From assembly GCA_038213805.1 (NCBI GenBank), contig JBBQSO010000078.1, positions 1 through 25,322 on the forward strand: a DNA stretch of 25,322 bases. Direction: 5' to 3'. The notes under the pieces are model-generated. The model was not told the origin of the DNA. It made no database searches and worked only from the letters and a program-made list of their open reading frames with translations. Position 1 is the first letter of the stretch; each line of letters opens with the position of its first letter. Origin of the DNA: Planctomycetota bacterium. GTDB taxonomy: Bacteria; Planctomycetota; UBA11346. This document shows, piece by piece, positions 3,084 to 25,322 of this stretch. A program made the translations under genes and the position numbers.

Positions 3084-3239
3084 GGTTTCCTTTCGCCCGG
3101 TCGCGGAAGCGCGACGCAGGCACTCGAGCATGGCGGCATGACATGGCGGCTCAAGCACCGGCCGATCCCCCGGATCCTCCAGCGCCGCCGAACCTGGTGT
3201 ACCTGAGTTGATCCCGCTGCGTTACAGCCTGATCCCGAG

Positions 3240-3367
3240 GATCTTAACCGCCACGTCGCCACGTCGCCAAGGATCGCAGGGGAATCCGCAACCCCGGGCC
3301 CGAGACGGGCCGTTGTCCGCCCTCCTTTGTCTTCCCTTAGCGTCTTGGCGTCTTGGCGGTAAAAATC
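3240..3367. repeat. Imperfect inverted-repeat element with 8-nt tandem units (CGCCACGT x2 / CGCCAAGA x2)
   Basis: Left arm GATCTTAACCGCCACGTCGCCACGTCGCCAAGG (3240-3272). Reverse complement of the right arm (3335-3367) is GATTTTTACCGCCAAGACGCCAAGACGCTAAGG. Confidence 0.85.
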
Positions 3368-3385
3368 GTCGCGGCCTGCGGGATC

Positions 3386-5842: not shown

Positions 5843-6792
5843 GGCCCGACCTTGCCGTCGGCCCCGTCAAGCCCGCCCGCTTCGTCAGGACCGGCAGGCG
5901 CTATGGCAGGCAGGGCGCCCTCCGCCGGCCAGATCACCTGCTGGCTGGTCAACGTGCGCACCGCGACCAGGTCGAGCACCACGGCGTCGCCGGCCTGGCG
6001 CATGCGGTAGATGCGGCCGCGGCGGTCGCACCACAGCGTCGCGGCGGGCCGCGCGTCCTGCTCCATCTCGACGCGCAGCAGAGTCATGGTGCCACCGGCG
6101 GTGGCGACTGGTTCGCTGGGGTGCACGGTGAAGACCGCGCTCTGTACCACCGGGGCGAGGCGGCTTAGGTCGGCGGCGAGCACGTGCGTGGTAAAGCGTT
6201 CGCCGGGCTGCAGGTCGGGCGGCAGAGCGATCACCACGCCCAGCCCCTGGTTCTCGTCGCCGCGCAGCGCGGGGAATACGAAGGGCGTCGGCGTGCCGTG
6301 CGCGAAGCTCCACGTGCCTGCCAGTCCGCGCCCATCGACCACGCCCGAGGCGGTGAAGACCAGGTCGCCGAAGGCTGCGTCGACGTCGACGGACTGCAGG
6401 CGCAGGCGCTGATCGAAATGCTCGCGCGCCTCGAGCAGTGCACCGCGGCGGCCATGCTGCGGCAACCGCCCGGCCAGTCCCGCCAGGCCCGGCAGCAGGG
6501 TCAGATCGTCGATCGTTAGGCGGCTCGACAGCACGAAGGCCTCGGCCTCGGCGCCGAGCGCCAGCCGGCAGGTGCCGATAGGGCGGCCGTCCGCGCCCTC
6601 GGCGCCGCCGCTGCGCACGCGGTAGGTGAACTCCTGGTTGCCGTTCGCGCCGAGGATGGCACCAAGGTCGCGGCGTTCGCGCAGGCCCAGCCCGGGCAGG
6701 GCGTGGCGCAGCACGTGGCTGGTGAACAGCGCCAGCCAGCCGCACACCACCGCCAGACGGACCAGGGCTCCAAAGGTCATGCGCGCCGCCAC
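5839..6792 (-). CDS. Hypothetical membrane-anchored, beta-rich protein
   Basis: 317 aa; N-terminal hydrophobic helix (LVRLAVVCGWLALF); starts 3 nt after the lptD-like stop and overlaps the SQS start. Start may be ATG 6780. Confidence 0.75.
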   Translation of the reverse strand: MAARMTFGALVRLAVVCGWLALFTSHVLRHALPGLGLRERRDLGAILGANGNQEFTYRVRSGGAEGADGRPIGTCRLALGAEAEAFVLSSRLTIDDLTLLPGLAGLAGRLPQHGRRGALLEAREHFDQRLRLQSVDVDAAFGDLVFTASGVVDGRGLAGTWSFAHGTPTPFVFPALRGDENQGLGVVIALPPDLQPGERFTTHVLAADLSRLAPVVQSAVFTVHPSEPVATAGGTMTLLRVEMEQDARPAATLWCDRRGRIYRMRQAGDAVVLDLVAVRTLTSQQVIWPAEGALPAIAPAGPDEAGGLDGADGKVGP

Positions 6793-6795
6793 GGT

Positions 6796-9117: not shown

Positions 9118-9301
9118 GGTGGGCGCGGCGCGGGCGGTGGCTAGTGGTGGATCGGGGTGCGCAGGGAAGGCGGCTGACGGCCGATCCCAGTTGCTCACAA
9201 CTGACCGGTGCGTGTCCCTGAACGCGAGGTGGTGCGGATCAACACACCTGCCTACAGCAATGACCGAAGTCAGCGCAGCGCGCCATGATGCTTCAACCCG
9301 C

Positions 9302-10501
9302 TCAGGGCTGCGGATAATTCGCCAGATCGGCCGGCGTCAGCCCACCCTTGAGTTCGCGCGCCTTGAGCTCGCGCGCCGCCGCCTTGCTCAACGGACCGAT
9401 CTTTCGCCCGAGCACAGTGATGAAGTAGGCGCGTTCCTCGCCGGTGCCCGGCTGGGTCACCGGCGCGGGGGCTGGTTTCGCGGCCGGTGTCGCTGCGCCT
9501 GGGCGCGACGCTGCCGCGGGCACCGGCACCGAGAGCGGACGCGGGGGTGGCGAGGCGGGACGCGAGACCGGGGTCACGGTCAGAGCGGCATCCTGGTCTT
9601 CGGCGATCACCGGCATGCCGTGCCCCGTGTAGTCGTCCTCCATTGGTCGGGCTGGAATCGGCGTGACGGCTGCGGGTGCCGGCGCCGCGCTGCGCGCCGC
9701 CGGGGCGGACTTCTGGTCTTCGGCGCGGAATACCGCCGTCGGCCGCACGACCGGGGTGGTGCCAGGACGCCGCGGTGCGGTGCTGGCAGGCGCGGCCGGG
9801 GCCGCGGGCGCTACCGGCCGCTGGGGGGCGACCGGCGCCGGCGGAGCCGCGACCGGTGCGCGTGCCGCCGTAACCACCGGCGTGCGCGGCATGCCGGGAT
9901 GCGGAATCAGCGATGCGGTCTTGGTCAGCGCCTCGGCCAGGGGTTCGGGGGTGAAGTCGGAGCTGTCGATGGCCGGTTCGATGCGGCTGTCGTCCTCGGG
10001 CATCTCGTCCTGCTCGAGGGGCGCGCGTGTGGTCTCGGTGTGGTCGGGTTCCGCAGGCTCGGCAGCGTCCTCGGCCCCATGGTCGCTCGATGGGGCGAGC
10101 GTGCCCTGGACCACCGGGGTGGCGGCGCGGGTTTGCTCGCCATCGCTGTGCGTGGTGTCCTCGTCCTCGGCGCGGCGTACGCTCACCGGTGCGGCGCCGC
10201 TGTCGACGATCTCGGCGACGATCAGCTGGGTCTGCCCGGCTTCTATGGCATTACCGGTGACCAGCGGCACGGTGCCGATGATCTGCTCGCCATCGAGCTT
10301 GCAGCCGTTGGTGCTGAGCAGGTCGATGACCTGCCAGGCGCCATCGCTGAACTCGACGGCGCAGTGTTTGCGGCTGAGCTTGAGATCGAGGATGCGCACT
10401 TCGCAGGCCGAGCCGCGGCCGATGTGGTAGCGCCGGCCCGGCTTGAGGTGGTAGGTGTCGACCTCGCCGTCGGGGCGCTGATGCTGGAGCCGCATGATCA
10501 T
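9302..10501 (-). CDS. FHA-domain protein with long Pro/Ala-rich linker and C-terminal GYF_2-like domain
   Basis: YHIGRGSACEVRILDLKLSRKHCAV...IDLLSTNGCKLDG has the FHA GR, SRxH and NG motifs. C-terminal YFITVLGRKIGPLSKAAAREL. GGAG SD before ATG 10501. Confidence 0.88.
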   Translation of the reverse strand: MIMRLQHQRPDGEVDTYHLKPGRRYHIGRGSACEVRILDLKLSRKHCAVEFSDGAWQVIDLLSTNGCKLDGEQIIGTVPLVTGNAIEAGQTQLIVAEIVDSGAAPVSVRRAEDEDTTHSDGEQTRAATPVVQGTLAPSSDHGAEDAAEPAEPDHTETTRAPLEQDEMPEDDSRIEPAIDSSDFTPEPLAEALTKTASLIPHPGMPRTPVVTAARAPVAAPPAPVAPQRPVAPAAPAAPASTAPRRPGTTPVVRPTAVFRAEDQKSAPAARSAAPAPAAVTPIPARPMEDDYTGHGMPVIAEDQDAALTVTPVSRPASPPPRPLSVPVPAAASRPGAATPAAKPAPAPVTQPGTGEERAYFITVLGRKIGPLSKAAARELKARELKGGLTPADLANYPQP

Positions 10502-11046: not shown

Positions 11047-11137
11047 CCGGGGGCGCGCAGCGCCTATCCGTGACGGCCGGGGCTGAGGCTTGCCCGGACG
11101 GACCGGGGACGAGGATCAGCGCCCCGAGGATGACCCC

Positions 11138-12547
11138 ATGAAGCCGACCGTGCGCCCCAGCAAGCCGACCGCGACCGCCCGCAACGGGCAGCGCGCGTCC
11201 AAGGCAGGGACCAAGGCCAAGGCGCCGGTGAAAGCGGGGAAACGCACCAGCATGGCTCCTGCGGTCAGCGGCGCGCGAGCTGCGAAAGCAGCCAAGGGCG
11301 CAGCGCTGCGCCCGGCCAAGCCGGTTGCAAAGAAGGTCCGCCCGCCGGCTGCCGGGCGACGGTCCAAGGCCGCACCGGCCGGTCGCGCACCCAAGGTGCA
11401 GCCGATGGCCCCCCAGGTGGTGGCCAGCACCCTGCCTGCGGATGCCCTGCTCGTCCCCGCCGACCGCCCGCTGCGCGGCGTCGAATGGCGCGGCGGTCTC
11501 GAAGACGGCGTGCTGGTGCTGCTTGACCAGACGCGCCTGCCGAACGTGGTCATCGACCGCCAGGTGCGCGATCTCGAGACCCTGCGCGCGCACATCATCG
11601 ACCTGGTGGTGCGCGGTGCCCCGGCCATCGGCATCGCCGGGGCCTATGGCGTGGTCCTGCACCTCGCGCCCCTGGCCAAGTCAGGTGCTGGCGCCGACAG
11701 CCTCGAAGAATCGCTGCGCCACGCCCTCGACCGCCTCGTCACCAGCCGCCCGACGGCAGTCAATCTCAAGTGGGCACTCGACCGGCTGCGCGACTGCTAC
11801 GAACGCCATGTCGGCCATCTCACCGCCCAGGAGATGGTCGCGCGCCTGCTCATGGAGGCCAAGCGCATCCACCGCGAGGACGCCCAGTTGTGCGCGCGCA
11901 TCGCCGACAACGGTGCGGCGTTGCTGCCCGCGGACGGCGGCGTGCTGACGCACTGCAACACCGGTGCCCTGGCCACCGGCGGGGTCGGCACGGCGCTCGG
12001 CTGCATCGTGTACGCGGCGCGCGCCGGCAAGCGCATCCAGGTCTACGCGGACGAGACCCGCCCGCTGCTGCAGGGCTCGCGCCTCACCGCCCTCGAACTG
12101 CAGCGCGCGGGCGTGCCGGTGACCCTGATCTGCGACAGCATGGCCGCGCACCTCATGCAACGCGGGCGCATCCAGGCGGTGATCGTCGGCGCCGACCGCA
12201 TCACCGCCAACGGCGACGCGGCCAACAAGATCGGCACCTACGGCGTGGCGGTGCTGGCCAAGCACCATGGCATCCCGTTCTACGTCGCGGCGCCCTACAG
12301 CACCTTCGACCTGACCCTCGACAACGGGATGGACATCCACATTGAGGAGCGCAAGGGTGACGAGGTCCGCCGCCCCCAGGGCACGCTCTTCGCGCCCGCT
12401 GACGTGCCGGTCGCCAATCCAGCCTTTGACGTCACCCCGGCAGAGCTGATCACGGCCATCATCACCGAGCGCGGCATCATCCAGCGCCCCAACCGCGACA
12501 GCGTTGCGCGCCTGATGGCGGGCGACGCCTGGCAGCCGGCGGGGTGA
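11138..12547 (+). CDS. mtnA: S-methyl-5-thioribose-1-phosphate isomerase with Lys/Ala/Pro-rich N-terminal extension
   Basis: LLDQTRLP, VRGAPAIG, SRPTAVNL, LTHCNTGALAT, ETRPLLQGSRLT, VGADRI, ANKIGTY, NPAFDVTP. GAGGA SD before ATG 11138. Confidence 0.96.
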   Translation: MKPTVRPSKPTATARNGQRASKAGTKAKAPVKAGKRTSMAPAVSGARAAKAAKGAALRPAKPVAKKVRPPAAGRRSKAAPAGRAPKVQPMAPQVVASTLPADALLVPADRPLRGVEWRGGLEDGVLVLLDQTRLPNVVIDRQVRDLETLRAHIIDLVVRGAPAIGIAGAYGVVLHLAPLAKSGAGADSLEESLRHALDRLVTSRPTAVNLKWALDRLRDCYERHVGHLTAQEMVARLLMEAKRIHREDAQLCARIADNGAALLPADGGVLTHCNTGALATGGVGTALGCIVYAARAGKRIQVYADETRPLLQGSRLTALELQRAGVPVTLICDSMAAHLMQRGRIQAVIVGADRITANGDAANKIGTYGVAVLAKHHGIPFYVAAPYSTFDLTLDNGMDIHIEERKGDEVRRPQGTLFAPADVPVANPAFDVTPAELITAIITERGIIQRPNRDSVARLMAGDAWQPAG

Positions 12548-15065: not shown

Positions 15066-16360
15066 TCGTTGCACCCGGCCCGGGCGTGCGCGTGCTGGTG
15101 TGGGGCTTCGGCAGCCACGGCGGCGGCTTGGCCGCGGCGCGGCACTGCGCGGCGTTGGGCGCGCAGGTCGAGATCCTTGACGACAGACCGGCGGCAGCCT
15201 GCGGTGACCATGGCGCCTGCGCCGCGGCCAGCGGTTGGGCTTGGCACGTCGGCGACGCCACGCACCCCGCCTTTGCCAGCGCCGACCTTATCGTCGCCTC
15301 GCCGGCCATCCCGCCGCGCGCTTGGCCGGCGCGCCACCCGCCGCGCACCGCGCCGGAAGGACTGGCGCTCGCCGCGCACCGCGGACCGCGCCTTGCGGTG
15401 ACCGGCACCAAGGGCAAGAGCACCACCGCGCTGCTGTGCGCGACCCTGCTTGGGTGGGAGGTGGCCGGCAACAGCAACGAGCCGCTGCTGGCCCTGCTCG
15501 CGCGGCGCGGGTCGCAGGTGCCGCTGGTCTGCGAACTGTCGAGCTTCCAGCTCGATCACCTCGCACACGACCAACTTGCGCCCCCGCCGCGCTTCGCCGC
15601 TGCGCTGGTCACCAGCCTGGCGCGCGACCATCTCGACTGGCACGACGACCTCGCCCACTACCACGCGGCCAAGCTGCGCCTGCTCGACTGGGCGGACGCC
15701 TGCGCGCTGGTTGACGAGGTCGTGCCGCTGGTCCCCGGGCGCACCCCGCTGCCGGCGGTGGTGCTGCGCGACGGGGCATTCATCGCGGCCGACGGCCTGG
15801 TGCTGGGCCGGCGCAGCGATCTCGCCCTGCCCGGCGCGCACAATGCTCGCAATGCCTGCCTGGCGCTGACCGTGGCCCGTCATCTCGGCCTCGATGCCGG
15901 GTTGGCGGCCGGGCGCCTGCGTGACGTGCGCGGTCTGCCGCACCGTCTCGAACTGGTTCATGCGGGACAGCGCTGGCGCTTCGTCGACGACTCGATCGCG
16001 ACCACGCCGGAGTCGGCGATGGCCGCGCTCGACGCGCTTTCCGGCCCGCTGGCGGTGATCCTCGGCGGGTCCGACAAGGGCGCGACCTGGGATGTCTTGG
16101 CTGCGGCGGTGGCGGCGCGCGGCGCGCTGCCCCTGCTGATCGGTCAGACCGCGCCGGCCATCGCCACCGCGCTCGCCGCCCGCGGCCTCGCGGCCCTGCG
16201 CGTCGCCGACCTCGATGAGGCGGTGGTGCGCGCCCAGGCGCTGCTGCCGCAGGGGGGCACCATCCTACTCAGCCCGGCCTGCGCCTCGTTTGACATGTTC
16301 CGCGGCTTCGCGGACCGTGGCCAGCGCTTCGCCGCGGCGGCCCGCCGACATGCCCCCTAG
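15062..16360 (+). CDS. murD: UDP-N-acetylmuramoyl-L-alanine--D-glutamate ligase
   Basis: SPAIP, VTGTKGKSTT P-loop, ELSSFQL, DHLDWH, GLPHRLE, DDSIATTPES, GGSDKG, LLSPACASFDMF. Confidence 0.92.
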   Translation: MIVAPGPGVRVLVWGFGSHGGGLAAARHCAALGAQVEILDDRPAAACGDHGACAAASGWAWHVGDATHPAFASADLIVASPAIPPRAWPARHPPRTAPEGLALAAHRGPRLAVTGTKGKSTTALLCATLLGWEVAGNSNEPLLALLARRGSQVPLVCELSSFQLDHLAHDQLAPPPRFAAALVTSLARDHLDWHDDLAHYHAAKLRLLDWADACALVDEVVPLVPGRTPLPAVVLRDGAFIAADGLVLGRRSDLALPGAHNARNACLALTVARHLGLDAGLAAGRLRDVRGLPHRLELVHAGQRWRFVDDSIATTPESAMAALDALSGPLAVILGGSDKGATWDVLAAAVAARGALPLLIGQTAPAIATALAARGLAALRVADLDEAVVRAQALLPQGGTILLSPACASFDMFRGFADRGQRFAAAARRHAP

Positions 16361-16391
16361 CCCGCCAACGCGGCCCCGGCATCATCACGGC

Positions 16392-18092
16392 ATGGCCACC
16401 ACCCTGGACTGTGTCCGCCACGAAGGCCCCTGGTCGCCCCGCTATCTGGTCGGCTTCGACCTGCGCCGGCGACCGCATCTCGAGAGCGATGTGCTGATCG
16501 TGGGCGGCGGAGTGGCAGGGCTGTGCGCCGCGCTCGCGGCTGCCGACGCCGGCAAAGAGGTACTGGTCCTGGTCAAAGGTCCACTGCTCGAGAGCAACAC
16601 CGCCTACGCCCAGGGTGGCGTCGCCGCGGTGCTCGGCGACGCCGAGCGCGAGGCACGCGACGAGGTCGACCTGCACGTCCGCGACACCCTCGCCGCCGGT
16701 GCCGGGCTGTGCGACGAGGGCGTGGTGCGCGATCTGCTCGAGGACGCCGCCGGCGCGATCCACTTCCTGCGCCGCCACGGTTGCCACTTCGACCTCTCGG
16801 GCGATGGCCACGTCGCGCTCGCGCGCGAGGGCGGGCACAGCGCGCGGCGCATCCTGCACGCCAACGGCGACTCGACCGGCGCCGAGGTTGCGCGCAGCCT
16901 GGCAGCCGCCGTCGCGGCAAACCCCGGCATCACGGTGGTCGAGAACGCCTTCGCCATCGACCTGCTCACCGAGGGCGGGCGCGTGGTCGGGGTGCTCTAC
17001 CACCGCCGCGAGGAGCTGGTCGCCGCCCTCGCCGGCGCCACTGTGCTCGCCACCGGCGGTTGCGGGCGGGTGTGGCGCGAAACCAGCAATCCTGCGGTCG
17101 CCACCGGTGACGGTCTGGCCATGGCGTACCGCGCCGGCGCCGAGCTTGGCGACATGGAGTTCATGCAGTTCCACCCGACCACGCTGTACATCGCTGGTGG
17201 TGCGCGCCTGCTCATCACCGAGGCGATGCGCGGCGAGGGTGCGGTGCTGAAGAACCATGCGGGCGAGCGCTTCATGCCGCGCTACCATCCGCTGGCCGAC
17301 CTCGCGCCGCGCGACGTCGTCACGCGCGCGATCATCGCCGAGGTCCGCGCCGGCGGCTTCCCGCACGTATGGCTCGACGCCACCCACCTCAAGGCGGAGT
17401 TCCTCGCCGAGCGCTTCCCGACCATCGCCCAGGCCTGTGCCAAGCTCGGCATCGATATCGCGACGCAGTGGATCCCGGTGCACCCCAGCGCCCACTACCA
17501 CTGCGGCGGCGTGCTCAGCGACGCGCGCGGATTGACCACCCTGCCCGGCTTGTGGGCGGCCGGCGAGGTCGGCTGCACCGGTCTGCACGGCGCCAACCGC
17601 CTGGCCTCGAACTCGATCCTCGAAGGCCTGGTGGTGGGCGTGCGCGCCGGCCGTGATGCAGCCGGTGGTGGCGGCCCGGCCGGGCGTGTGCGCCTGCACG
17701 AGGCGCGCGAACTGCCGGCGCCGGAATCGCTCGACGTGCCGGACCTGGTGCGCTCGTTGCGCTCGCTGATGTGGCGCCACGTCGGCATCGAGCGCACCGG
17801 CAACGAGCTCGCCACCGCGCGCCGCACGCTGCAGTTCTGGTCGCGCCACCAGGCACGCGGTGAATTCCGCGAGCGCAGTGGCTGGGAGCTGCAGAACCAA
17901 CTGACCGTCTCCAGCCTCGTCGCCGCAGGCGCCGAGCTGCGCACCGCCAGCGTCGGCACGCACACGCGCAGTGATTCCAGCGGGCTGCTTGACCTGCACC
18001 ACCATACGTTCCTGCGCAACGCCGCGGTGGACGCACGCGATGAGGCGGTGACGCCAGGCGTGGTCCCTCCGCGTGGCGGGCCGCTGCCATGA
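16392..18092 (+). CDS. nadB: L-aspartate oxidase
   Basis: DVLIVGGGVAG, SNTAYAQGGVA, REGGHSARRILH, LATGG, EFMQFHPT, LITEAMRGEG, LAPRDVV, AHYHCGG, GLHGANRLASNS. Confidence 0.95.
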   Translation: MATTLDCVRHEGPWSPRYLVGFDLRRRPHLESDVLIVGGGVAGLCAALAAADAGKEVLVLVKGPLLESNTAYAQGGVAAVLGDAEREARDEVDLHVRDTLAAGAGLCDEGVVRDLLEDAAGAIHFLRRHGCHFDLSGDGHVALAREGGHSARRILHANGDSTGAEVARSLAAAVAANPGITVVENAFAIDLLTEGGRVVGVLYHRREELVAALAGATVLATGGCGRVWRETSNPAVATGDGLAMAYRAGAELGDMEFMQFHPTTLYIAGGARLLITEAMRGEGAVLKNHAGERFMPRYHPLADLAPRDVVTRAIIAEVRAGGFPHVWLDATHLKAEFLAERFPTIAQACAKLGIDIATQWIPVHPSAHYHCGGVLSDARGLTTLPGLWAAGEVGCTGLHGANRLASNSILEGLVVGVRAGRDAAGGGGPAGRVRLHEARELPAPESLDVPDLVRSLRSLMWRHVGIERTGNELATARRTLQFWSRHQARGEFRERSGWELQNQLTVSSLVAAGAELRTASVGTHTRSDSSGLLDLHHHTFLRNAAVDARDEAVTPGVVPPRGGPLP

Positions 18093-18129
18093 ACCCGGAC
18101 CTGCGTTTTCCGCTGCGCGCGAGCGCCCG

Positions 18130-18453
18130 ATGAACCAGTCGGACGACCTGCGCTGGACCCCGGTTGGTCAAGCCGCCGAGTGGCCAGCAGACGGGGGCAA
18201 GCTGGTGACGGTCGGCGCGCGCCGCATCGGCGTCTACCACCACGCCGGCGCCTGGTATGCGCTCAAGGACATCTGCCCGCACGCCGGCGTCAGTCTGGTG
18301 CGCGGCCCGGTCGCCGAGGGCACGGTGATGTGCATCGGCCACGGCTGGACCTTCAGCCTGGCCAGCGGCGAGGTGGTGCGCGGCTCTGGTGGCCATAAGG
18401 TGGCGACTTGGCCCGTGCGCGTCGTCGGGGGCACGGTCGAGGTGGGGGTGTGA
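18130..18453 (+). CDS. Rieske [2Fe-2S] ferredoxin (NirD/MocE-like)
   Basis: CPH...CIGH ligand pairs, GWTFSLASGE, C-terminal WPVRVVGGTVEV; 107 aa. Confidence 0.9.
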   Translation: MNQSDDLRWTPVGQAAEWPADGGKLVTVGARRIGVYHHAGAWYALKDICPHAGVSLVRGPVAEGTVMCIGHGWTFSLASGEVVRGSGGHKVATWPVRVVGGTVEVGV

Positions 18454-18508
18454 GCGCCGGGCGCACGCCCTTGCGGGCCTAGGCTGGGCCGATACTTTCC
18501 GGCCTCAC

Positions 18509-18580
18509 GCCCGAGTAGCTCAGTGGTAGAGCAATGCTTTCGTAAAGCGGAGGTCACAGGTTCGAGTCCTGTCTTGGGCA
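18509..18580 (+). tRNA. tRNA-Thr(CGT)
   Basis: Acceptor GCCCGAG/CTTGGGC, D arm GCTC-AGTGGTA-GAGC, anticodon loop TT-CGT-AA, T arm ACAGG-TTCGAGT-CCTGT. CCA is not encoded. Confidence 0.95.
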
Positions 18581-18593
18581 TATATCTGAGATC

Positions 18594-18628
18594 ATAACCC
18601 CTTGCAAAACAAGGGGTTATTTCTTGTT
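18594..18628 (+). terminator. Hairpin after the tRNA (intrinsic terminator-like)
   Basis: Perfect 11-bp stem ATAACCCCTTG-CAAAA-CAAGGGGTTAT followed by TTCTTGTT. Confidence 0.7.
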
Positions 18629-18860
18629 CTCCGCTGATCTACCGAGTCACTCAAGCGTGTTGTCCACGAAGTGGCATGCGCTGGCCGGCGGTCCGGGCGC
18701 ACCGCTGGCGACCGCTCGTACATGCGGCATTGCCATGGGGTAGATCACCAGGCGTGCAGGTTTCCCAAGCCTCACGCACTTGGCAGGTTCCTCCCGCACA
18801 CCGCTGCGTGCTCATTTCTCCGCATGCTCGTCGCCATCGATGCCGGATCCCGACCGCGCT

Positions 18861-20165
18861 TCAGCAATCCAGCGTCGACGTCAGCTCATACGGAGAGATG
18901 TGCGCAGCATTCGTGTTCCACTCGATCATCTTGATCGCCAGGTAGCTGCGCACGAAATCCTGCCCCAGGCTCGCCGTGAACTCGTGGTTTGCTCGCAATT
19001 CGCGCATGGCATCCAGCAGGTTCGCCGGCAGCCGCTGGCACGCGCCTTCCGGCAACGGGTGGGTGTACATGTTGTTGTCGTGCCGCGGCCCCGGATCGCG
19101 GCGCTGGGCGACTCCGTCGAGCACCGCCGCGGTGATGCCGGCCTGCAACAGGTAGGGGTTCGCGGCGCCATCGCCCAGGCGCAGCTCGAAGCGGTCAACG
19201 TCGGGGATGCGGATCATGTGCGTGCGGTTGTTGCCGGTGAAGCTGACCGCGTTGGGCGACCACGTCGCGCCCGAGGTGGTCATCGGCGCGTTGAGGCGCT
19301 TGAATGAGTTCACCGTCGGGTTGGTCAGCGCGCACAGCGCCAGGGCGTGGTGCAGCAGCCCGCCGATCGCGTGGTATGCGGTGGGCGACAGACCGAGCGG
19401 GCCCTGGGGGTGGTGCATGAGATTGGTGCCGGCCAGGTCCCACAGCGACAGGTGCACGTGGCAGCCGTTGCCGGACTTGTGGGCAAAGGGCTTGGGCATG
19501 AAGGTTGCTCGCAGGCCGGCCTGCTCGGCGAGGGTTTTGGCCATGTATTTGAAGAACGAGTGGCGGTCGGCGGTGATCAGCGCGTCACCGTAGTGCCAGT
19601 TCATCTCGAACTGGCCGTTGGCGTCCTCGTGGTCGCTCTGGTAGGGGCCCCAGCCGAGCGCCTCCATGGCGTCGCTCAGACGCGCGATGAGCTGGAAGTT
19701 GCGCATCACCGCGGCCTGGTCATAGCACGGCTTGGCCTGCTGGTCGCGCACGTCGCCGGCGCCGCTGGCGGCGGCGTCGAGCAGGAAGAACTCGCACTCC
19801 ACGCCGGTGCGCACGCTGAATCCGCAGCTTGCGGCGAGCGCCAACTGGCGCTTGAGCACGGTGCGCGGCGCCTGCTCGAGCGGCTGACCGCCCATCACCA
19901 GATCGGCGGCGACCCACGCGACCTCGCTGTTCCAAGGCAGCTGGATCAGGCTGGCGGGATCAGGGATGGCGAACATGTCGGGATCGGCCGGGGTCATGTC
20001 CAGCCAGGTGGCGAAGCCGGCAAAGCCGGCGCCTGAGACCGCCATCGCGTCCATCGCCGCGCGCGGCACCAGCTTGGCGCGCTGCACGCCGGCGAGGTCG
20101 GTGTACGAGACCAGGAAGAAGCGCACGCCGCGCTCGCGGGCGTAGTCGGCGAAGGAAAACGGCAT
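18861..20165 (-). CDS. glnT: GlnT-type (type III) glutamate-ammonia ligase / gamma-glutamylmethylamide synthetase (GmaS)-like
   Basis: YTDLAGVQRAKLVP, GAGFAGFATWLDMTPADPD, LIQLPW, GVECEFFL, KPCYDQ, YQSDHEDANGQFEMNW, TFMPKPF, TTSGATWSPN, GNNRTHMIRIP, C-terminal TLDC. GGAG SD before ATG 20165; the ORF-track extension to 20591 is not part of the gene. Confidence 0.92.
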   Translation of the reverse strand: MPFSFADYARERGVRFFLVSYTDLAGVQRAKLVPRAAMDAMAVSGAGFAGFATWLDMTPADPDMFAIPDPASLIQLPWNSEVAWVAADLVMGGQPLEQAPRTVLKRQLALAASCGFSVRTGVECEFFLLDAAASGAGDVRDQQAKPCYDQAAVMRNFQLIARLSDAMEALGWGPYQSDHEDANGQFEMNWHYGDALITADRHSFFKYMAKTLAEQAGLRATFMPKPFAHKSGNGCHVHLSLWDLAGTNLMHHPQGPLGLSPTAYHAIGGLLHHALALCALTNPTVNSFKRLNAPMTTSGATWSPNAVSFTGNNRTHMIRIPDVDRFELRLGDGAANPYLLQAGITAAVLDGVAQRRDPGPRHDNNMYTHPLPEGACQRLPANLLDAMRELRANHEFTASLGQDFVRSYLAIKMIEWNTNAAHISPYELTSTLDC

Positions 20166-20179
20166 GCTGCGGCTCCGGC

Positions 20180-21187
20180 TCAGGCGGTGAGGAGGTCGGC
20201 CACCGCGTCGCGGATGGCCAGCGTGTCGACGGGATCGAGGATGGGGTTGCCGGCCCGGTGGCCGCGCCACGAGTGCAAGGGGTGCAGGCGCGCGTTGGGG
20301 ATCAGCGCCGCCTCTGCCGCGCAGTCGGTGACGGTGAAGTAGAGGTCGCTGGTGGACGGCATCACCAGGGTGCGTGCGGTGATCGCCTGCAGGGCGCGGC
20401 GCGTGTCGCCGCCATAGATCTCGTTGGCGCCGATGTCGGCGCGCATCCAGGTGCGCAGCATGCCGAGGTGGTCGAGCGCGTCGCGGCGGCGGTAGAACGG
20501 CTCCCACGCGCGCGCCAGGTAGTCCTCGAGGTCGGCGTAGCCCTGGCGGCGGTACTCCTGGCGGCGGTAGAACTCCTGCGAGGCGGCCCATGAGGCGTAG
20601 ATGCGCGCGAAGGTGCGAAAGCCGCGCTCCGGGACCGCGGTGAAGCGCGTCCCATCCCAGGCCGGGTCGGCGAGCAGCGCCGCCTCAAGCGACATCAGGA
20701 AGAGGCGGTTGTGCTCGCTGGTGCGCGCCGTCCCGCACAGCGCGGCGATGCGCGCGATGCGTTCCGGAAACAGCGCGCCCCAGTGGTAGGCCTGCTGCGC
20801 ACCCATCGACCAGCCGTAGACCAGCGCCAAGCGCTCGATGCCGAAGTGTTCGCGCAGCAGGCGCTCCTGCGCGCGCACGTTGTCGGCGTGACTGACGGTG
20901 AAGGCCGGCGCCGGGTCGGCGAGGTGGCTGGGTGACGTCGACAGCCCGTTGCCGAACATGTCGACGATGACCACGAACCAGCGCCGCGGATCGAGGATGC
21001 CCTCGGGTTTCACCAGCCACTCCACATCCGTGTGCTGGGCCCCGTACGAGGTCGGGTAGAGGATGGCGTTGCCGCGGTTCGCGTCGAGTTCGCCGAAGGC
21101 CTTCCAGCTCAGCTTCGCCGCCGGCAGCACCTGGCCGGAAAGCAGCGTCACATCGCCGAGTGGGAAGACCCCGGTGTATGGACTCAC
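20180..21187 (-). CDS. Alpha/beta hydrolase, homoserine-acetyltransferase-like (MekB/AcmB esterase-like)
   Basis: GDVTLLSG, FGEL...NAILYPT, DMFGNGLSTSPS, nucleophile elbow GWSMGAQQ, acid in DLYF, His in GHRAG. GTG start overlaps the upstream TGA (GTGA). Confidence 0.88.
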   Translation of the reverse strand: MSPYTGVFPLGDVTLLSGQVLPAAKLSWKAFGELDANRGNAILYPTSYGAQHTDVEWLVKPEGILDPRRWFVVIVDMFGNGLSTSPSHLADPAPAFTVSHADNVRAQERLLREHFGIERLALVYGWSMGAQQAYHWGALFPERIARIAALCGTARTSEHNRLFLMSLEAALLADPAWDGTRFTAVPERGFRTFARIYASWAASQEFYRRQEYRRQGYADLEDYLARAWEPFYRRRDALDHLGMLRTWMRADIGANEIYGGDTRRALQAITARTLVMPSTSDLYFTVTDCAAEAALIPNARLHPLHSWRGHRAGNPILDPVDTLAIRDAVADLLTA

Positions 21188-22167
21188 CCTGGACCCGCCC
21201 CGAGCGCGCGCAGCAGCTGTCGCTGGACACCGAGGTAGCCGTCGCGGGCGAGGTATGCGAGGTGCGGCTTGAGGTGGGCGTGCATCCGGCGCAGCGCGTG
21301 GAAGGGCAGCGCGGGGAAGCGGTGGTGTTCGGCGTGGTAGGGCATCTCCCACATCAGGTAGTCGATCAGCGCATTGGTGTAGGTGGTGCGCGTGTTGGCG
21401 TAGCGGTCAGGCCCCTCGACCGTGCCGGTGTGTTCGGAGAGCGTGAAGACGCGCAGGAAGGGCTCGCCAACGGCGAGCGGCAGCACCCAGCCGAGCACGA
21501 ACCACCACGAACCGGCCAATGCGCTGGCGGCGATGGCGATGGCGTACACCGCGACCTGCAGTCGTTCCGAACGCACCACCTCGGCGCGCGCGGCCACCGG
21601 AATGTACGGCTTCTTCTGTGCATGACCGAAGAAGGCCAGGGCGAGGTGACCGCGTACCTTGCCGTACCACCAGGTCAGCCCGGCGATTTCGATGACCCAC
21701 CCCGTGCGCGAGCGTGGCTTGGGATCGTCCAACTCCGGGTCCTTGCCTGCTTGCTGGGTGAAGCGGTGGTGCCAGCCATGGTAGTGACGGTAGAAGGTGC
21801 TGTTGTAGAACGATAGCAGGCCGGCGAACCAGCCCACCGCGTCATTGAGCGCGTTGGTCTTGAAGGCGGTACGATGCACGCACTCGTGCATCGGCGCGAA
21901 CATCGTCGCCAGGCACAGCCCGTAGAGCACCAATGCCGGCAGCGCGATCCATAAGGTCAGCGGCGCCATTCCGGAGAGCGGATACCAGTGCGCCAGCCAC
22001 AGCCAGCCGGCCGCCGCCATCAGCGCCAAGTGCCCGGCCAACCGCCACCACGCGGGCCCATCGCGGCGCATCAGCAGCTCTTTGAGCTCGCCGCCGCCCA
22101 GGCGCAGGGGATCGCCACTGGGTGACGTGGGTTCGGTGGTTGCGTCGATGGCGTCGATGGAGGTCAT
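21184..22167 (-). CDS. Membrane di-iron desaturase/oxygenase, MocD (rhizopine oxygenase)-like
   Basis: His boxes HECVH, HGWHH and HAEHH, plus EHTG, NTRTT, DPEL and PALPFHAL; several TM segments. Start MTSIDA at 22167. Confidence 0.88.
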   Translation of the reverse strand: MTSIDAIDATTEPTSPSGDPLRLGGGELKELLMRRDGPAWWRLAGHLALMAAAGWLWLAHWYPLSGMAPLTLWIALPALVLYGLCLATMFAPMHECVHRTAFKTNALNDAVGWFAGLLSFYNSTFYRHYHGWHHRFTQQAGKDPELDDPKPRSRTGWVIEIAGLTWWYGKVRGHLALAFFGHAQKKPYIPVAARAEVVRSERLQVAVYAIAIAASALAGSWWFVLGWVLPLAVGEPFLRVFTLSEHTGTVEGPDRYANTRTTYTNALIDYLMWEMPYHAEHHRFPALPFHALRRMHAHLKPHLAYLARDGYLGVQRQLLRALGAGPG

Positions 22168-22179
22168 GGTTGCCGGACC

Positions 22180-22309
22180 GGGCTGGGTACACTGGAAAGC
22201 GAGGATGCTGATCGGCAATGCTTCGCGATTAGACAATGCATCGACACTGGGACGCCGCCGGATGGGCGTGCGTGCGGAAGGTTGCCGACCCGCCAGAATA
22301 CCCAGGCCC
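22180..22309 (-). other. Predicted structured 5' leader RNA of the desaturase-hydrolase-glnT operon
   Basis: Nested minus-strand helices: 22293-22305 with 22183-22195 (12/13 pairs); 22282-22289 with 22211-22218 (8/8 including G-U); two small inner hairpins. Confidence 0.4.
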
Positions 22310-22346
22310 TGATGCGCGCACTTTCTGCAGGACGCCGGAGTCATCC

Positions 22347-22362
22347 TGCAAGCGCTTGGCCC
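22347..22362 (-). promoter_or_regulatory. Candidate sigma54 (-24/-12) promoter
   Basis: GGGCCAAGCGCTTGCA gives GG-N10-GC with a TTGCA -12 element, oriented toward the glnT operon. The -24 element deviates from TGGCAC. Confidence 0.5.
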
Positions 22363-22383
22363 GGGCCCCATTCCGCCTACCGT
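22356..22383 (+). promoter_or_regulatory. Candidate sigma70 promoter for a leaderless amidohydrolase mRNA
   Basis: TTGGCC-16nt-TACCGT, ending 6 nt before ATG 22390; no SD. Confidence 0.45.
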
Positions 22384-22389
22384 AAAAGT

Positions 22390-24117
22390 ATGCCCCATCC
22401 GCCTTATCTGGCCTGGACATGCGCCTGGCTCCTGGCCGCATGTGTCTCTGACGTACCTGCGGCCGACCTGCTGCTGCGCGGCGCGCGGGTCTACGACGAG
22501 AGTGCCGGCGCCTGGCGCTTCCCCTGCGACGTCCTGGTGCTGGGCGACCGCATCGCAGCGCTCGGGCCCGATCTGGTGCCGCCCGCTGGCGCGCGCGTGC
22601 TGCAGGTGCCCGGCACGTGGATCGTTCCCGGACTGATCGACGCGCACATCCACTTCGGGCAGTCAGGAGGCCTCTACACGCGGCCCGACGGTCTCGACCT
22701 CACCGCTGTGCGCCCCTACCCCGAGGAGCAGCGCCGCCTGCGCGCCGGCTGGGATGCGACCCTGCGCCGCTACCTGCGTTGCGGCATCACCACCGTGCAG
22801 GACGTCGGCGGGCCAATGTGGAATCTCGAAGTGCGCGCCCACGCCGCGGCCTCGCCGTGCGCGCCGCGCGTGCTGGTCGCCGGGCCGCTGCTGTCGTCGT
22901 GGCTGCCGCCGCGCCTGGTCTGCGACGACCCGCCCATCCTGCGCGTCTCCGACGCGGCCGCGGCGGTCGCCCAGGTCGATGCCCAAGCCGATGCCGGCGT
23001 CGACCTGATCAAGATCTGGTGGATCGTGCATGGCCAGGGTCCCGAGCCCTTCGCTGAAATCGCGCGCGCCATCGTCGCGGCCGCGCACCGCCGCCACCTG
23101 CGCGTCGCGGTGCACGCCACCGAGCTGGCCACCGCCAAGGCCGCTCTGGCCTGCGGCTGCGACCTGCTGGTGCACAGCGTCGAAGACCGCGACCTCGACG
23201 ACGCCTTCATTTCCGAACTGATCGCCAAGCGCATCCCGCTGATCCCTACACTGGTGGTCGGCCGCGACTACGCGCGCGCCTACAGTGGGCACTTCGCGCC
23301 GCTGCCCGAAGAGGCCCAACTTGCCGACCCTGATGCGCTCGGCAGCCTCTACGACGCCTGGCACCTGCCGCCGGAGCTGATTCCGCCCGGTCTGCGCGCG
23401 CGCATGGCCGCGCCGCTGACCATCGCCGATGATGCGCAACAGGCCGCAAATCTGTTGCGCCTGGTGCACGCCGGCGCGGTCATCGCGCTCGGCACCGACG
23501 CCGGCAACGTCGGCACGCTGCCCGGACCCGCGGTCTTCCGCGAACTCGCCGCCATGGCCCGCGCCGGCCTGACCCCGCGCCAGATCCTGCGTGCCGCCAC
23601 CGTCGATGGCGGTGCGGCGCTCGGCCGCCCCGAGCTCGGCCACCTCGCGCCCGGCGCCCCCGCCGACTTGCTGGTGCTGGACGCCGACCCGCTCGCGGAC
23701 AGCGCCAACCTCGCGCGCCTGCATCTCGTGGTCGCTGCCGGCCGGCCCTTCCTGCCCCGCGAGATCATCACCGATGATCCGGTGGCGGTGGCGCAGCGCG
23801 TGCTCAATGCGCTCAATGCCGGTGATTCCGCGGCGCTGATGGCGCTGTGCGCGCCGCAGATGTCGGTGGTCGCGGGAGGAGCGCCCGCACGTGACGTGGC
23901 GCACGCAGAGCTGGCGGAGCGGCTGCGCAGCGCGCTACCGTGGGCGCCGCGCTTCCACTGCGAGTTGCGCGCACGCCATGTGGAGGGGACGACGGCGCAC
24001 TGCGAGGTCCGCGTCAGCGAGGTGCGCGCGGGCAGCGCGGTTTCCGGCGTGCTCACCTGCCGGCTCGATGGCGAGGGGCTGGGGCTGATCGGCTGGGAGG
24101 AAGGTCTCGCGAAATGA
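22390..24117 (+). CDS. Exported metal-dependent amidohydrolase with C-terminal SnoaL/NTF2-like domain
   Basis: PGLIDAHIH, GITTVQD, IKIW (Lys), VAVHA, LVHS, GTDAGN, GAPADLLVLDADP. Tail DPVAVAQRVLNALNAGDSAALMAL is SnoaL-like. Hydrophobic N-terminus ends LLAAC. Confidence 0.88.
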   Translation: MPHPPYLAWTCAWLLAACVSDVPAADLLLRGARVYDESAGAWRFPCDVLVLGDRIAALGPDLVPPAGARVLQVPGTWIVPGLIDAHIHFGQSGGLYTRPDGLDLTAVRPYPEEQRRLRAGWDATLRRYLRCGITTVQDVGGPMWNLEVRAHAAASPCAPRVLVAGPLLSSWLPPRLVCDDPPILRVSDAAAAVAQVDAQADAGVDLIKIWWIVHGQGPEPFAEIARAIVAAAHRRHLRVAVHATELATAKAALACGCDLLVHSVEDRDLDDAFISELIAKRIPLIPTLVVGRDYARAYSGHFAPLPEEAQLADPDALGSLYDAWHLPPELIPPGLRARMAAPLTIADDAQQAANLLRLVHAGAVIALGTDAGNVGTLPGPAVFRELAAMARAGLTPRQILRAATVDGGAALGRPELGHLAPGAPADLLVLDADPLADSANLARLHLVVAAGRPFLPREIITDDPVAVAQRVLNALNAGDSAALMALCAPQMSVVAGGAPARDVAHAELAERLRSALPWAPRFHCELRARHVEGTTAHCEVRVSEVRAGSAVSGVLTCRLDGEGLGLIGWEEGLAK

Positions 24118-24135
24118 TGCGGGGAGTCGGGCGTT

Positions 24136-24160
24136 GCGAGATGCGGGACGCCGCTCTCGC
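24136..24160. terminator. Hairpin between convergent genes
   Basis: GCGAGA(T)GCGG-GACG-CCGCTCTCGC; no clear U-tract. Confidence 0.4.
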
Positions 24161-24162
24161 GT

Positions 24163-24627
24163 CTAGGTCAGCTCCACCTTGAACACCACCTTGCGGAACT
24201 CCGTCGGCCCATGGCTGCCATCGCAGCACGGCTTGTGCGCATCCTCGGGCCAGAAGATCGCGAACTCGTCGGGCCGTACGTGCAGCCGCGTCGGTGCGTG
24301 TGTCGGCGCGTGGTAGAAGGCGATGTCGCCGTCCACGGCGAAGTCGTCGGACACGGTGAGCCCCGTCAGCGGCGTCCACTCCATGACCTCGCCACCGCGC
24401 AGGTTGACCTGGATGTCGATGTAACGGCGGTGCGACTCGAAGCGCTTGGTCGCGGCTGGGCCGGTGTGGCCGCTGTCGAGGATCGCGAACAGTGCCTCGC
24501 CTTGGATGACATGGCGGCCATCCGGCCGCGCGCGATTGGCCGGATCGGTCACCCAGGCGAATGCTGCGGCGAAGCGCGGGTGCAGGGGCTGGTAGCGGAC
24601 CGCGTTGACGAGCTGGTCGTGGATCAC
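24163..24627 (-). CDS. YhcH/YjgK/YiaL family protein
   Basis: FESHRRYIDIQ, GGEVM, DIAFY, FAIFWPEDAHKP, RKVVFKV. Confidence 0.92.
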   Translation of the reverse strand: MIHDQLVNAVRYQPLHPRFAAAFAWVTDPANRARPDGRHVIQGEALFAILDSGHTGPAATKRFESHRRYIDIQVNLRGGEVMEWTPLTGLTVSDDFAVDGDIAFYHAPTHAPTRLHVRPDEFAIFWPEDAHKPCCDGSHGPTEFRKVVFKVELT

Positions 24628-24634
24628 GGGCCGC

Positions 24635-24898
24635 TCAAGCGGCCGGCGCGCGGCGCGCCGCGATGTGCTCGCTGAGCGCGGCGAGGCTGGCGAAGGCTTC
24701 GCGGTGGGTCTCCAGCTCCTGCGCCTTCACACCGTAGTGGCGCTCGACCAGCACTGCGATCTCAAGCGCGTCGATGGAGTCGAGGCCAAGACCGCCGGCA
24801 AAGAGTGGTTTCTGCGGGTCGATGTCATCCGGGGTCAGGCCCTCGAGATTGAGGCCGCTGATGAGCAGGGTCGCGAGTTCGCGCTGAGCTTGGTCCAT
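24635..24898 (-). CDS. Acyl carrier protein (aryl-polyene/flexirubin-cluster type)
   Basis: LNLEGLTPDDID...PLFAGGLGLDSIDALE (phosphopantetheine Ser), YGVK, AFASLAAL. Confidence 0.92.
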   Translation of the reverse strand: MDQAQRELATLLISGLNLEGLTPDDIDPQKPLFAGGLGLDSIDALEIAVLVERHYGVKAQELETHREAFASLAALSEHIAARRAPAA

Positions 24899-24904
24899 CC
24901 GCGC

Positions 24905-24910
24905 AGGTTA
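24905..24910 (-). promoter_or_regulatory. Putative -10 box (TAACCT) of a leaderless ACP transcript
   Basis: TAACCT 6 nt before ATG 24898; TTGCCC lies 15 nt further upstream; no SD. Confidence 0.4.
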
Positions 24911-25008
24911 GGACCCAGTGCCCCAGGGCAAGACTTCCTGCGGCCACTGCAGGCATAAGCGGGGAAACGGTCGCGGTGCGCGCGTTATTCCGCTGCATAT
25001 TGCATGGT

Positions 25009-25320
25009 TCACTCCGTCTGCCAGAGCTCCGCGCGCGCGCTCAGGGTGCCATCGGCCTCGATCCACCCGACCAGCAGCCGAGCGCAGTCCCAGGCAAGCA
25101 GATCGTCGCATACCGCTTGCTGCTGCGCCGCATCCGCGCCCAGCACCGCCAGGCCTGGCCCATCCAATCCCAGGCGGATGCTGGCCTCGCCGATCGGCGC
25201 GGTCGGCAGGGTGTAGGGGAAGCGCTGCGGATCGCAGACGCCGGCGCGGCGCTGGCGTTCAAAGTCGCGGTCGGTGGCGGCGCAGCCGCTGGTGGTGAAA
25301 AGCACGATGCCGGTGCCGGA
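25009..25320 (-). CDS. Beta-ketoacyl synthase N-terminal-like / chain-length-factor-like protein, C-terminal part (gene begins beyond the right edge)
   Basis: GIVLFTTSGC..TD..F...DPQRFPYTLPTAPIGEASIRLGLDGP...LLVGWIE resembles the P-x-x-F-x-Y-T-L-P-x-x-x-x-G-E-x-x-I segment of KS/CLF-like proteins; adjacent to an ACP. Confidence 0.7.
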   Translation of the reverse strand, partial: SGTGIVLFTTSGCAATDRDFERQRRAGVCDPQRFPYTLPTAPIGEASIRLGLDGPGLAVLGADAAQQQAVCDDLLAWDCARLLVGWIEADGTLSARAELWQTE

Positions 25321-25322
25321 AG

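Follow-up and report, generated by a model that had tools for sequence, protein, structure and literature searches.

The N-methylglutamate (NMG) pathway (GmaS-MgsABC-MgdABCD) begins with the ligase GmaS, which is followed by the Mgs and Mgd enzymes. A ligate-first logic is also found in the Puu pathway for putrescine, the Ipu pathway for isopropylamine of Pseudomonas sp. KIE171 and the aniline/naphthylamine systems: a glutamine synthetase (GS)-like ligase acts first, an oxygenase or oxidase then works on the glutamylated amine, and a hydrolase follows. The oxygenases of these pathways are cytochrome P450, flavin or Rieske enzymes, and the hydrolases are of the class-I glutamine-amidotransferase type. 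In the ketone pathways MekA-MekB and AcmA-AcmB, a Baeyer-Villiger oxygenase is combined with a PRK07581-type esterase. Here we describe three adjacent genes in a stretch of 25,322 nucleotides (nt) of Planctomycetota DNA (contig JBBQSO010000078.1 of assembly GCA_038213805.1; hereafter, the window), which encode a membrane di-iron oxygenase (DES), a serine alpha/beta hydrolase (HYD) and a GmaS-type ligase. The glutamylate-oxidise-hydrolyse principle has precedents, but we know of none for this set of enzymes, for the reaction that we propose or for the occurrence in cyanobacteria. We propose, at slightly less than an even chance, that this trio is a self-contained module for methylamine (possibly ethylamine) nitrogen that works without the NMG enzymes, in which the ligase acts first and DES and HYD then convert its product to glutamine.

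All three genes lie on the minus strand. DES (positions 22167-21184; ATG start, 327 amino acids (aa)) matches PF00487 at 137.6 bits. HYD (21187-20180; GTG start, 335 aa) scores 451.8 bits on PRK07581, for which the cut-off is 332, and the ligase gene (20165-18861; ATG start, 434 aa) is annotated as glnT, 'type III glutamate--ammonia ligase'. The start of HYD overlaps the stop of DES by 4 nt (GTGA, 21187-21184), and a 14-nt spacer separates HYD from the ligase gene, with GGAG 8 nt 5' of the ligase ATG. The first-pass annotation, made from the sequence, had described three co-oriented and tightly coupled genes with a GTGA overlap and a 14-nt gap carrying a Shine-Dalgarno sequence, and every one of these details is correct. 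The GC content at third codon positions (GC3) of the trio genes is 0.87-0.93, similar to that of the adjoining genes, and the GC content of the window is about 70%. The window lies on contig C78 of a 5.5-Mb genome that is 90% complete (hereafter, the host genome).

The ligase and its two partners

The ligase exceeds the cut-off of TIGR03105 (623.9 versus 469.6 bits) and stays below that of the GlnA model TIGR00653 (269.7 versus 429). Its best solved relative is RhGmaS from Rhodovulum (PDB 7cql), with 562 bits over residues 5-434, followed by 9qur, 'Glutamate--methylamine ligase', with 323 bits, whereas ordinary glutamine synthetases reach at most 207 bits. The methylamine pocket of RhGmaS is described as consisting of Tyr147, Gln175, Asp177, Glu179, Glu186, Asn188 and Lys30', with Arg312 as the catalytic residue; in comparison with GS, Ala48' replaces Asp50' and Trp300 replaces the glutamate of the Glu flap (PMC7948447). 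The chain numbering of 7cql is offset by 20 from the numbering of that paper, as worked out by alignment. The corresponding residues K31, A49, Y148, Q176, D178, E180, E187, N189, W302 and R314 are all present in the ligase, and they are identical in 41 of 41 trio-type ligases (K31 in 40 of 41, with one gap) and in all five ligases of NMG clusters. The ammonium-site Asp50' and the Glu flap of GS are missing, their places being taken by Ala49 and Trp302, and the host genome's own GlnA, encoded on contig C4, has Asp in the A49 column. A classical ammonium-using GS of type I was considered and ruled out by A49 and W302; a separate GlnA exists in the same genome. Judged by these residues, the ligase has a GmaS active site, and the earlier suggestion of a GmaS-type rather than an ammonium-using enzyme holds.

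The first-pass annotation had also called for a phylogeny of the ligase against GmaS and GlnT. We built a maximum-likelihood tree of 47 ligases, rooted with the GlnA of the host genome, by a quick search with SH-like approximate likelihood-ratio (SH-aLRT) support only. In this tree the trio ligases group among the NMG-cluster ligases: the ligases of beta- and gammaproteobacterial NMG clusters branch outside a three-way polytomy, which is formed by the alphaproteobacterial NMG-cluster ligases, a Planctomycetota and Myxococcota trio clade and a cyanobacterial trio clade. Since the trio ligases fall within the range of ligases from methylamine clusters, methylamine is the most likely substrate predicted for the ligase, and ethylamine is also possible.

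DES is assigned by sequence to the membrane di-iron oxygenases of the fatty-acid-desaturase superfamily, in a MocD-like subgroup. Its three His boxes, HECVH, HGWHH and HAEHH, are invariant across the homologue alignment, and it has two hydrophobic hairpins at approximately residues 63-97 and 203-241. No NCBIfam equivalog reaches its cut-off for DES, the best being GntB (arginine hydroxylase) with 39.8 versus 380 bits; a sequence search against PDB gave no match up to E = 1, and a protein-cluster search found generic 'fatty acid desaturase' clusters only. An AlphaFold model of DES (pLDDT 86, pTM 0.85) has as its nearest folds a chain of the Chlamydomonas Orf2971/Ycf2-FtsHi motor complex (8xks_K; TM score 0.72) and AlkB (8sbb; 0.52), and SCD1 is also among the nearest solved folds. 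DES is 34-36% identical to the desaturase of a Rhizobium leguminosarum cluster that resembles the MocDEF rhizopine oxygenase system in encoding a MocE ferredoxin and a flavin adenine dinucleotide (FAD) reductase, and the two proteins have the His boxes and the motifs DPE(L/I) and N(T/S)RT in common. Relatives of DES on plasmids (33-42% identity) adjoin genes for a MocE-family ferredoxin and an FAD reductase (R. leguminosarum) or a Rieske ferredoxin (Ruegeria); 'MocD-like', the name given to DES in the first reading of the window, is therefore a fair label. The trio differs from MocDEF in its partners, as MocE and MocF are not conserved with it, and in its likely substrate. A survey of 2008 lists cyanobacterial genes of the DES kind as 'mocD', without tests in the part that deals with them (PMC2593844). 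The locus tags of this list occur in no other main text in the literature that we searched.

HYD belongs, as judged by its sequence, to the serine alpha/beta hydrolases of the PRK07581 subfamily (MekB/CgHle-like, MetX-related). Its best PDB matches are 5e4y (196 bits) and 5d6o (192 bits), aligned over residues 9-311, and its catalytic triad aligns with both structures: Ser in GWSMG, Asp in SDLYF and His in RGHR. We take 5e4y and 5d6o to be the esterases MekB and CgHle. We also considered whether HYD is a MetX homoserine O-acyltransferase and rejected it, as HYD reaches 105 bits on models with cut-offs of 331 and 500. The MekB part of the earlier label 'MekB/MetX-like' is supported by the family assignment and the structural matches. 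MekB is described as a broad-specificity esterase that acts on methyl acetate and methyl propionate (PMC2975365). Neither a Baeyer-Villiger nor another flavin monooxygenase was found among the neighbours in the window or among the conserved neighbours of 80 DES loci.

Conservation and genomic context of the trio

We searched with a DES profile and found 401 relatives in species genomes; the following locus counts come from the best 80. These loci are mostly cyanobacterial (Gloeobacterales, Thermostichus, Pseudanabaena, Leptolyngbya, Pleurocapsales and others), with four metagenome-assembled genomes (MAGs) of Planctomycetota and a few Myxococcota. The nearest relative found is in a Planctomycetota MAG (L001), whose DES is 92% identical. 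Of the 80, 74 have 1.1 kb or more of sequence after DES, and in 68 of these 74 the next gene, in the same orientation, is HYD. It is divergent in L014, lies farther downstream in L078, and is not found in L022, L042, L070 and L073. The ligase gene is in the locus in 30 of 41 cases with enough flanking sequence, always on the same strand, 27 times downstream and three times upstream. Five genomes without a ligase gene in the locus were inspected: three carry an orthologue of 62-64% identity elsewhere, and two have a relative of 49% identity only. Thus, the trio is conserved in Cyanobacteria, Planctomycetota and Myxococcota, in an arrangement far beyond chance; co-occurrence of the three families was what the first-pass annotation had asked for, and it is found in three phyla. 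We found no publication that describes the trio, in a literature search whose coverage lacked most subscription journals and supplementary tables; this agrees with the earlier view of a candidate undescribed operon.

The module is also mobile. A complete annotated trio is found on a 78.5-kb plasmid of Leptolyngbya sp. BL0902, and a HYD-ligase pair lies beside insertion sequences on a Nostoc plasmid. Planctomycetota, Myxococcota and Cyanobacteria are set apart in both the DES tree and the ligase tree. Together, the plasmids, the patchy occurrence and the two trees indicate that the module moves as a unit. DES was found in none of 300 other sampled Planctomycetota genomes, among which are three from the genus of the host genome and 12 from its family. 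The trio is rare in this phylum, and the copy in the window was therefore probably acquired horizontally.

In the genomes that we examined, the trio and the NMG genes exclude each other. In five plasmid glnT loci of alpha-, beta- and gammaproteobacteria (Rhizobium johnstonii pRL11, Rhodobacteraceae SC52, Paracoccus yeei, Aquabacterium olei and Acinetobacter ursingii), mgsABC adjoins the ligase gene in 5/5, usually together with sarcosine-oxidase-like mgd genes, ammonium transporters and an XRE-cupin regulator; neither DES nor HYD occurs in any of these five loci. Conversely, the host genome has no stand-alone NMG synthase: the sole frame above the GXGXG and Glu_synthase cut-offs is a GltB of 1522 aa, in a search that did not extend to NMG dehydrogenase. 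In five other trio genomes, GXGXG domains are found only inside GltB-sized frames of more than 1500 aa.

We further searched one set of 301 cyanobacterial genomes, of the phylum of genome G001 (which was picked as a trio holder), for four genes. Matches were obtained in 23 genomes for DES, in 16 for a ligase of the trio type (identity of 58% or more), in 15 for a HYD orthologue (plus one 44% relative in G468) and in four for a stand-alone MgsB, in frames of 238-264 aa. DES accompanies the trio-type ligase in all 16 of its genomes and HYD does so in 15, whereas MgsB occurs in none. Conversely, no DES was found in the genomes with MgsB (G321, G390, G468 and G558), and these four are precisely the ones in which the best match to the ligase has an identity of only 40-51%. 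The first-pass annotation had noted that the mgs partners are absent from the window, and this absence extends to the host genome, the five trio genomes and, for MgsB, the 16 cyanobacterial genomes. Wherever a HYD orthologue occurs (15 genomes), DES and the ligase are present too, and in nine of these genomes the three genes adjoin one another; in the other six the ligase gene is on another contig or 0.5 to about 2 Mb away. Thus, the co-occurrence of the three genes persists without linkage. In these cyanobacteria, the ligase is found with MgsB or with DES and never with both, which fits a replacement of the NMG enzymes after the ligase by DES and HYD. One would expect such exclusive contexts if the GmaS product is handled either by DES (with HYD) or by the NMG enzymes.

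Regulators beside the trios point in a similar direction. A GntR/UTRA regulator is divergent from the trio in 10 cyanobacterial loci and an XRE-cupin regulator in four, and a creatininase-family gene stands beside the trio in seven Pseudanabaena-type loci. Apart from these creatininase-family genes, we saw no connection of the trio with guanidine. The four XRE-cupin regulators are 65% identical to that of the Aquabacterium NMG cluster, 52-54% to that of Acinetobacter and 44-47% to those of two alphaproteobacteria, and they resemble the NMG-cluster regulators at least as closely as these resemble one another (41-68%). Because this regulator family is shared, an inducer common to trios and NMG clusters is suggested. 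In addition, GTAN8TAC, which we take to be the NtcA consensus, occurs within about 400 nt upstream of DES in 16 of 78 loci, compared with 3.8 +/- 1.9 (maximum 11) in 200 dinucleotide shuffles; these 16 loci include close relatives, and two of the sites may lie within the divergent regulator gene. TAN3T is found at the expected spacing in 10 of the 16. The enrichment of NtcA-like sites upstream of DES would point to nitrogen control. A sigma-70 consensus scan of positions 18400-22600 of the window gave no promoter. The sequencing runs listed as covering 18700-22400 are all of metagenomic DNA, with none of RNA among them. Control by a riboswitch was considered and rejected: at Rfam gathering thresholds, the window and 13 trio loci contain no guanidine or other riboswitch before the trio, and the only matches are tRNAs and one c-di-AMP riboswitch. 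The latter (72.9 bits) is at positions 926-1069 of locus L002, in a Planctomycetota MAG, on the opposite strand and just 5' of DES, and presumably controls the divergent neighbour.

A proposed pathway and its alternatives

In the pathway that we propose, the ligase would use ATP to join methylamine to the gamma-carboxyl group of glutamate and form gamma-glutamylmethylamide (N5-methylglutamine). This first step is well supported by the sequence of the ligase. We infer from the distribution of the genes that DES and HYD act after the ligase, on its product. DES, with a general ferredoxin as the electron donor, would hydroxylate the N-methyl carbon, possibly followed by a second oxidation, and its product would be N5-hydroxymethyl-glutamine or N5-formyl-glutamine. 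Such a C-H hydroxylation would be in line with known chemistry, as di-iron membrane oxygenases hydroxylate C-H bonds next to heteroatoms in O-demethylation by MocD, in alkylglycerol monooxygenase and in ether oxidation of the AlkB type. HYD, an esterase type for small acyl groups, would then convert the oxidised intermediate to glutamine and formaldehyde or formate. It may accelerate the release of formaldehyde from the carbinolamide or, in the case of a double oxidation of the methyl group by DES, cleave N5-formyl-glutamine by hydrolysis into formate and glutamine, which would suit an esterase with a small-acyl pocket. N-hydroxymethyl amides (carbinolamides) decay slowly unaided, and peptide amidation needs a separate lyase after the hydroxylase. 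Because carbinolamides break down slowly alone, a helper enzyme is plausible. HYD has been lost in two loci in which DES and the ligase gene are still adjacent: in L042 it is gone, and in L105 (G552) a remnant of 37 aa stands between the two genes. This fits a helper role in a step that also proceeds slowly unaided. In net terms, the nitrogen of methylamine would become the amide nitrogen of glutamine, and DES and HYD would do the job of MgsABC and MgdABCD. The fuller claim, that the trio is a complete and portable pathway from methylamine to the amide of glutamine with a new oxidative N-demethylation of N5-alkylglutamine, whose carbinolamide or N-formyl intermediate is cleared by a MekB-type hydrolase, is held a shade more tentatively than the module itself.

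This pathway would share its first enzyme with the NMG pathway, as both have ligases of the TIGR03105 family with identical pocket residues, and some trios also share the XRE-cupin regulator family. The follow-up enzymes are different: a membrane di-iron oxygenase and an alpha/beta hydrolase stand in their place. The ligate-first logic would be that of the Puu, Ipu and aniline/naphthylamine systems, but the trio has an oxygenase of the fatty-acid-desaturase type and a MetX/MekB-like hydrolase, and its proposed product is glutamine itself, whereas those systems yield glutamate and an oxidised amine. As in MekA-MekB and AcmA-AcmB, the oxygenase would make a labile product that is cleaved by a MekB-type serine hydrolase. 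Those pairs use a flavin Baeyer-Villiger enzyme and cleave at an ester oxygen, whereas the trio has a membrane di-iron enzyme and the bond in question is on an amide nitrogen.

The same DES-HYD pair is found in a second kind of module, on plasmids pRK1-2 of Cupriavidus basilensis and pD4M1A of Paroceanicella profunda (L093, positions 4780-10427, and L108, positions 4865-7986). In these modules an iron alcohol dehydrogenase replaces GmaS, the regulator is of the TetR type, and the gene order is HYD-DES. The Cupriavidus HYD scores 485 bits on PRK07581, and the DES relatives of the modules are 35-42% identical. The Cupriavidus module adds a rubredoxin and its reductase (an FAD oxidoreductase), whereas that of Paroceanicella has the iron alcohol dehydrogenase only. 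This module looks like a pathway for the oxidation of a small ether or alkyl compound, and the alcohol dehydrogenase partner, which could take over the second oxidation, matches a hydroxylate-oxidise-hydrolyse chemistry. Because the pair recurs on two proteobacterial plasmids, DES-HYD can be regarded as a core that is used repeatedly, combined with GmaS in one kind of module and with an alcohol dehydrogenase in the other.

Other explanations of the trio have to be considered. The first-pass annotation had favoured the reverse order, in which DES and HYD free a small amine such as methylamine from an N-alkyl compound and the ligase traps it. The compound might also be an N-acyl one, and the release might proceed, for example, by oxidative dealkylation and subsequent ester or amide hydrolysis. 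The gene order DES-HYD-ligase would suit this, the pair without GmaS implies that it can work on non-glutamylated substrates, and some loci are in organic-nitrogen islands or beside creatininase-family genes. We consider this order unlikely because gamma-glutamylmethylamide has no exit without MgsB. The nitrogen would stay locked in a dead-end product with no enzyme to free it, as MgsB is found in 0/16 cyanobacteria with a trio-type ligase and no stand-alone GXGXG protein in the host genome and five other trio genomes. DES and HYD should then also accompany NMG clusters, yet DES occurs in none of the four MgsB genomes and none of the five plasmid NMG loci.

A looser connection between the genes is less probable again. 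The ligase might detoxify methylammonium or make gamma-glutamylmethylamide as an end in itself, while DES and HYD would have a membrane lipid or an unrelated hydrophobic compound as their substrate and stay close to the ligase gene for regulatory reasons. DES does belong to a superfamily of lipid enzymes, AlkB and SCD1 are among its nearest solved folds, and there are genomes with DES only, some with an adjacent gene for a fusion of FA_hydroxylase and short-chain dehydrogenase. Against such a loose link stand the near-perfect co-occurrence in genomes even when unlinked (15/15 HYD genomes, and DES in 16/16 genomes with a trio-type ligase), the translational coupling of the trio genes and their presence together in three phyla. 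Slightly less probable still, and improbable overall, is a biosynthetic role in which the trio would make a modified gamma-glutamyl compound, for instance an N5-alkylglutamine with an added hydroxyl or acyl group, for use as a signal, solute or metabolite. The MetX family includes true acyltransferases, a hydroxylase and an acyltransferase are a common tailoring pair, and the module is patchy and plasmid-borne, all of which would be compatible with biosynthesis. HYD, though, is in the PRK07581 group and far under the MetX acyltransferase cut-offs, the linked regulators are of catabolic types, one of them common to NMG methylamine clusters, and the NtcA-like sites point to nitrogen control. No exporter, extra tailoring gene or precursor-supply gene is conserved near the trios. 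The probability that is left goes to mechanisms beyond those considered here.

Several observations weigh against the ligase-first pathway to glutamine itself. We infer the substrates of DES and HYD from context alone, and the role of HYD is the weakest link, since its solved relatives are presumably acetyl esterases rather than amidases or lyases. Because the DES-HYD pair also occurs without GmaS, on the two proteobacterial plasmids described above, its chemistry is not restricted to gamma-glutamyl amides. A conserved ferredoxin or reductase gene was not found beside the trio; a ferredoxin-like match is found in 1/80 loci (L001). Regulators vary by locus, with GntR/UTRA in 10, XRE-cupin in only four and neither in the window, and the host genome has no homologue of the XRE-cupin regulator. 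The absence of mgs from the host genome is provisional because this genome is only 90% complete, and the cyanobacterial genomes are related, so that their counts are not independent events. Finally, seven of the 23 cyanobacterial genomes with DES have neither HYD nor a trio-type ligase, and in three of these seven loci DES is followed by the FA_hydroxylase-dehydrogenase fusion; these show that DES can persist alone. Six of the DES-only proteins nest inside cyanobacterial trio clades of the DES tree, from which the seventh (G570) was left out for its stop codons, and the DES-only locus L099 keeps a HYD remnant of 96 aa. For these two reasons, the DES-only genomes look like secondary losses, possibly with a changed role of DES. 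The fusion genes (L102, positions 5106-6371, and L103, positions 2616-3884) code for about 421 aa. The DES match in G570 (G570:C1:2914406-2915269) has two in-frame TAG stops and is probably a pseudogene.

Methylamine often arises when osmolytes and proteins are broken down, and as a trace compound it is relevant to climate. If the proposed pathway is true, part of the cyanobacteria (all three genes in 15/301 genomes) and some Planctomycetota and Myxococcota would use methylated amines without the NMG enzymes, and primary producers would be tied directly to the pool of methylated amines. The desaturase/AlkB superfamily would gain a new type of reaction, on a soluble amino-acid amide, PRK07581 proteins would have a physiological role, and there would be an explanation for the cyanobacterial genes that have been listed as 'mocD' since 2008 with no function assigned. 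Three genes and a general ferredoxin would also be a small and handy part for the engineering of nitrogen use. The gene gmaS is used as a marker for methylamine-consuming bacteria (PMC7948447). This use assumes that the NMG enzymes act downstream of GmaS, and organisms that have gmaS without mgs or mgd, many cyanobacteria included, would be real methylamine users if the trio works as proposed.

Neighbouring genes

The region 22168-22386, between DES and a divergent gene, is the presumed promoter and regulatory region of the trio. The divergent gene (22387-24117, with a likely ATG at 22387) encodes an Amidohydro_1 protein with a C-terminal SnoaL-like fusion and a lipoprotein-like N-terminus. 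The fusion protein matches no curated family and, among the 80 DES loci, is common to L001 only.

On the other side, three genes are convergent with the trio. A tRNA-Thr (CGT) gene at 18509-18580 is followed by a perfect 11-bp hairpin with a T-run (span 18509-18620), about 240 nt from the 3' end of the trio. The tRNA near the trio and the absence of DES from the 300 other Planctomycetota genomes hint at an acquired island; a search of 18400-25322 for a direct repeat of the tRNA-Thr end gave none. Farther away are a gene for a Rieske ferredoxin-like protein of 126 aa (18073-18453) and nadB, for L-aspartate oxidase (within 16215-18453), which overlap by 20 nt. The Rieske protein reaches 33 bits on the MocE model TIGR02377 (cut-off 136), its best matches, AndAb, NirD and MocE, are all below threshold, and it is 22-26% identical to MocE-type ferredoxins. 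We considered it as a dedicated electron donor of the trio and rejected this, as only L001, one of the 80 loci, shares the gene and its identity to MocE-type ferredoxins is this low; as an electron donor for DES in the host organism it is possible. The MocDEF-like cluster of R. leguminosarum (L095) also adjoins nadA and nadB, as the Rieske gene of the window adjoins nadB.

Beyond the window, two of the DES-HYD or trio loci are near what we call organic-nitrogen islands: L107 (G010:C32:10000-29900) and L106 (G580:C18:17000-36000). One island has two more GS-like ligases, which are accompanied by a class-I amidotransferase or by an iron alcohol dehydrogenase and an aldehyde dehydrogenase, and it also has Rieske oxygenases and a dimethylglycine-dehydrogenase-like protein. 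The other has an arginase-family protein, a GS-like ligase, an NMT1-type ABC transporter and a Rieske oxygenase.

In the rest of the window, four frames at 417-944, 957-3158, 5839-6792 and 6796-9198 (175, 733, 317 and 800 aa) have GC3 of the coding type and no Pfam match at E <= 0.001. They share a minus-strand run with genes for a semialdehyde dehydrogenase and a squalene/phytoene synthase. An IF-2B family protein of 485 aa is encoded at 11090-12547; its Pfam domain begins at residue 174, so that it has either a long N-terminal extension or a mis-called start.

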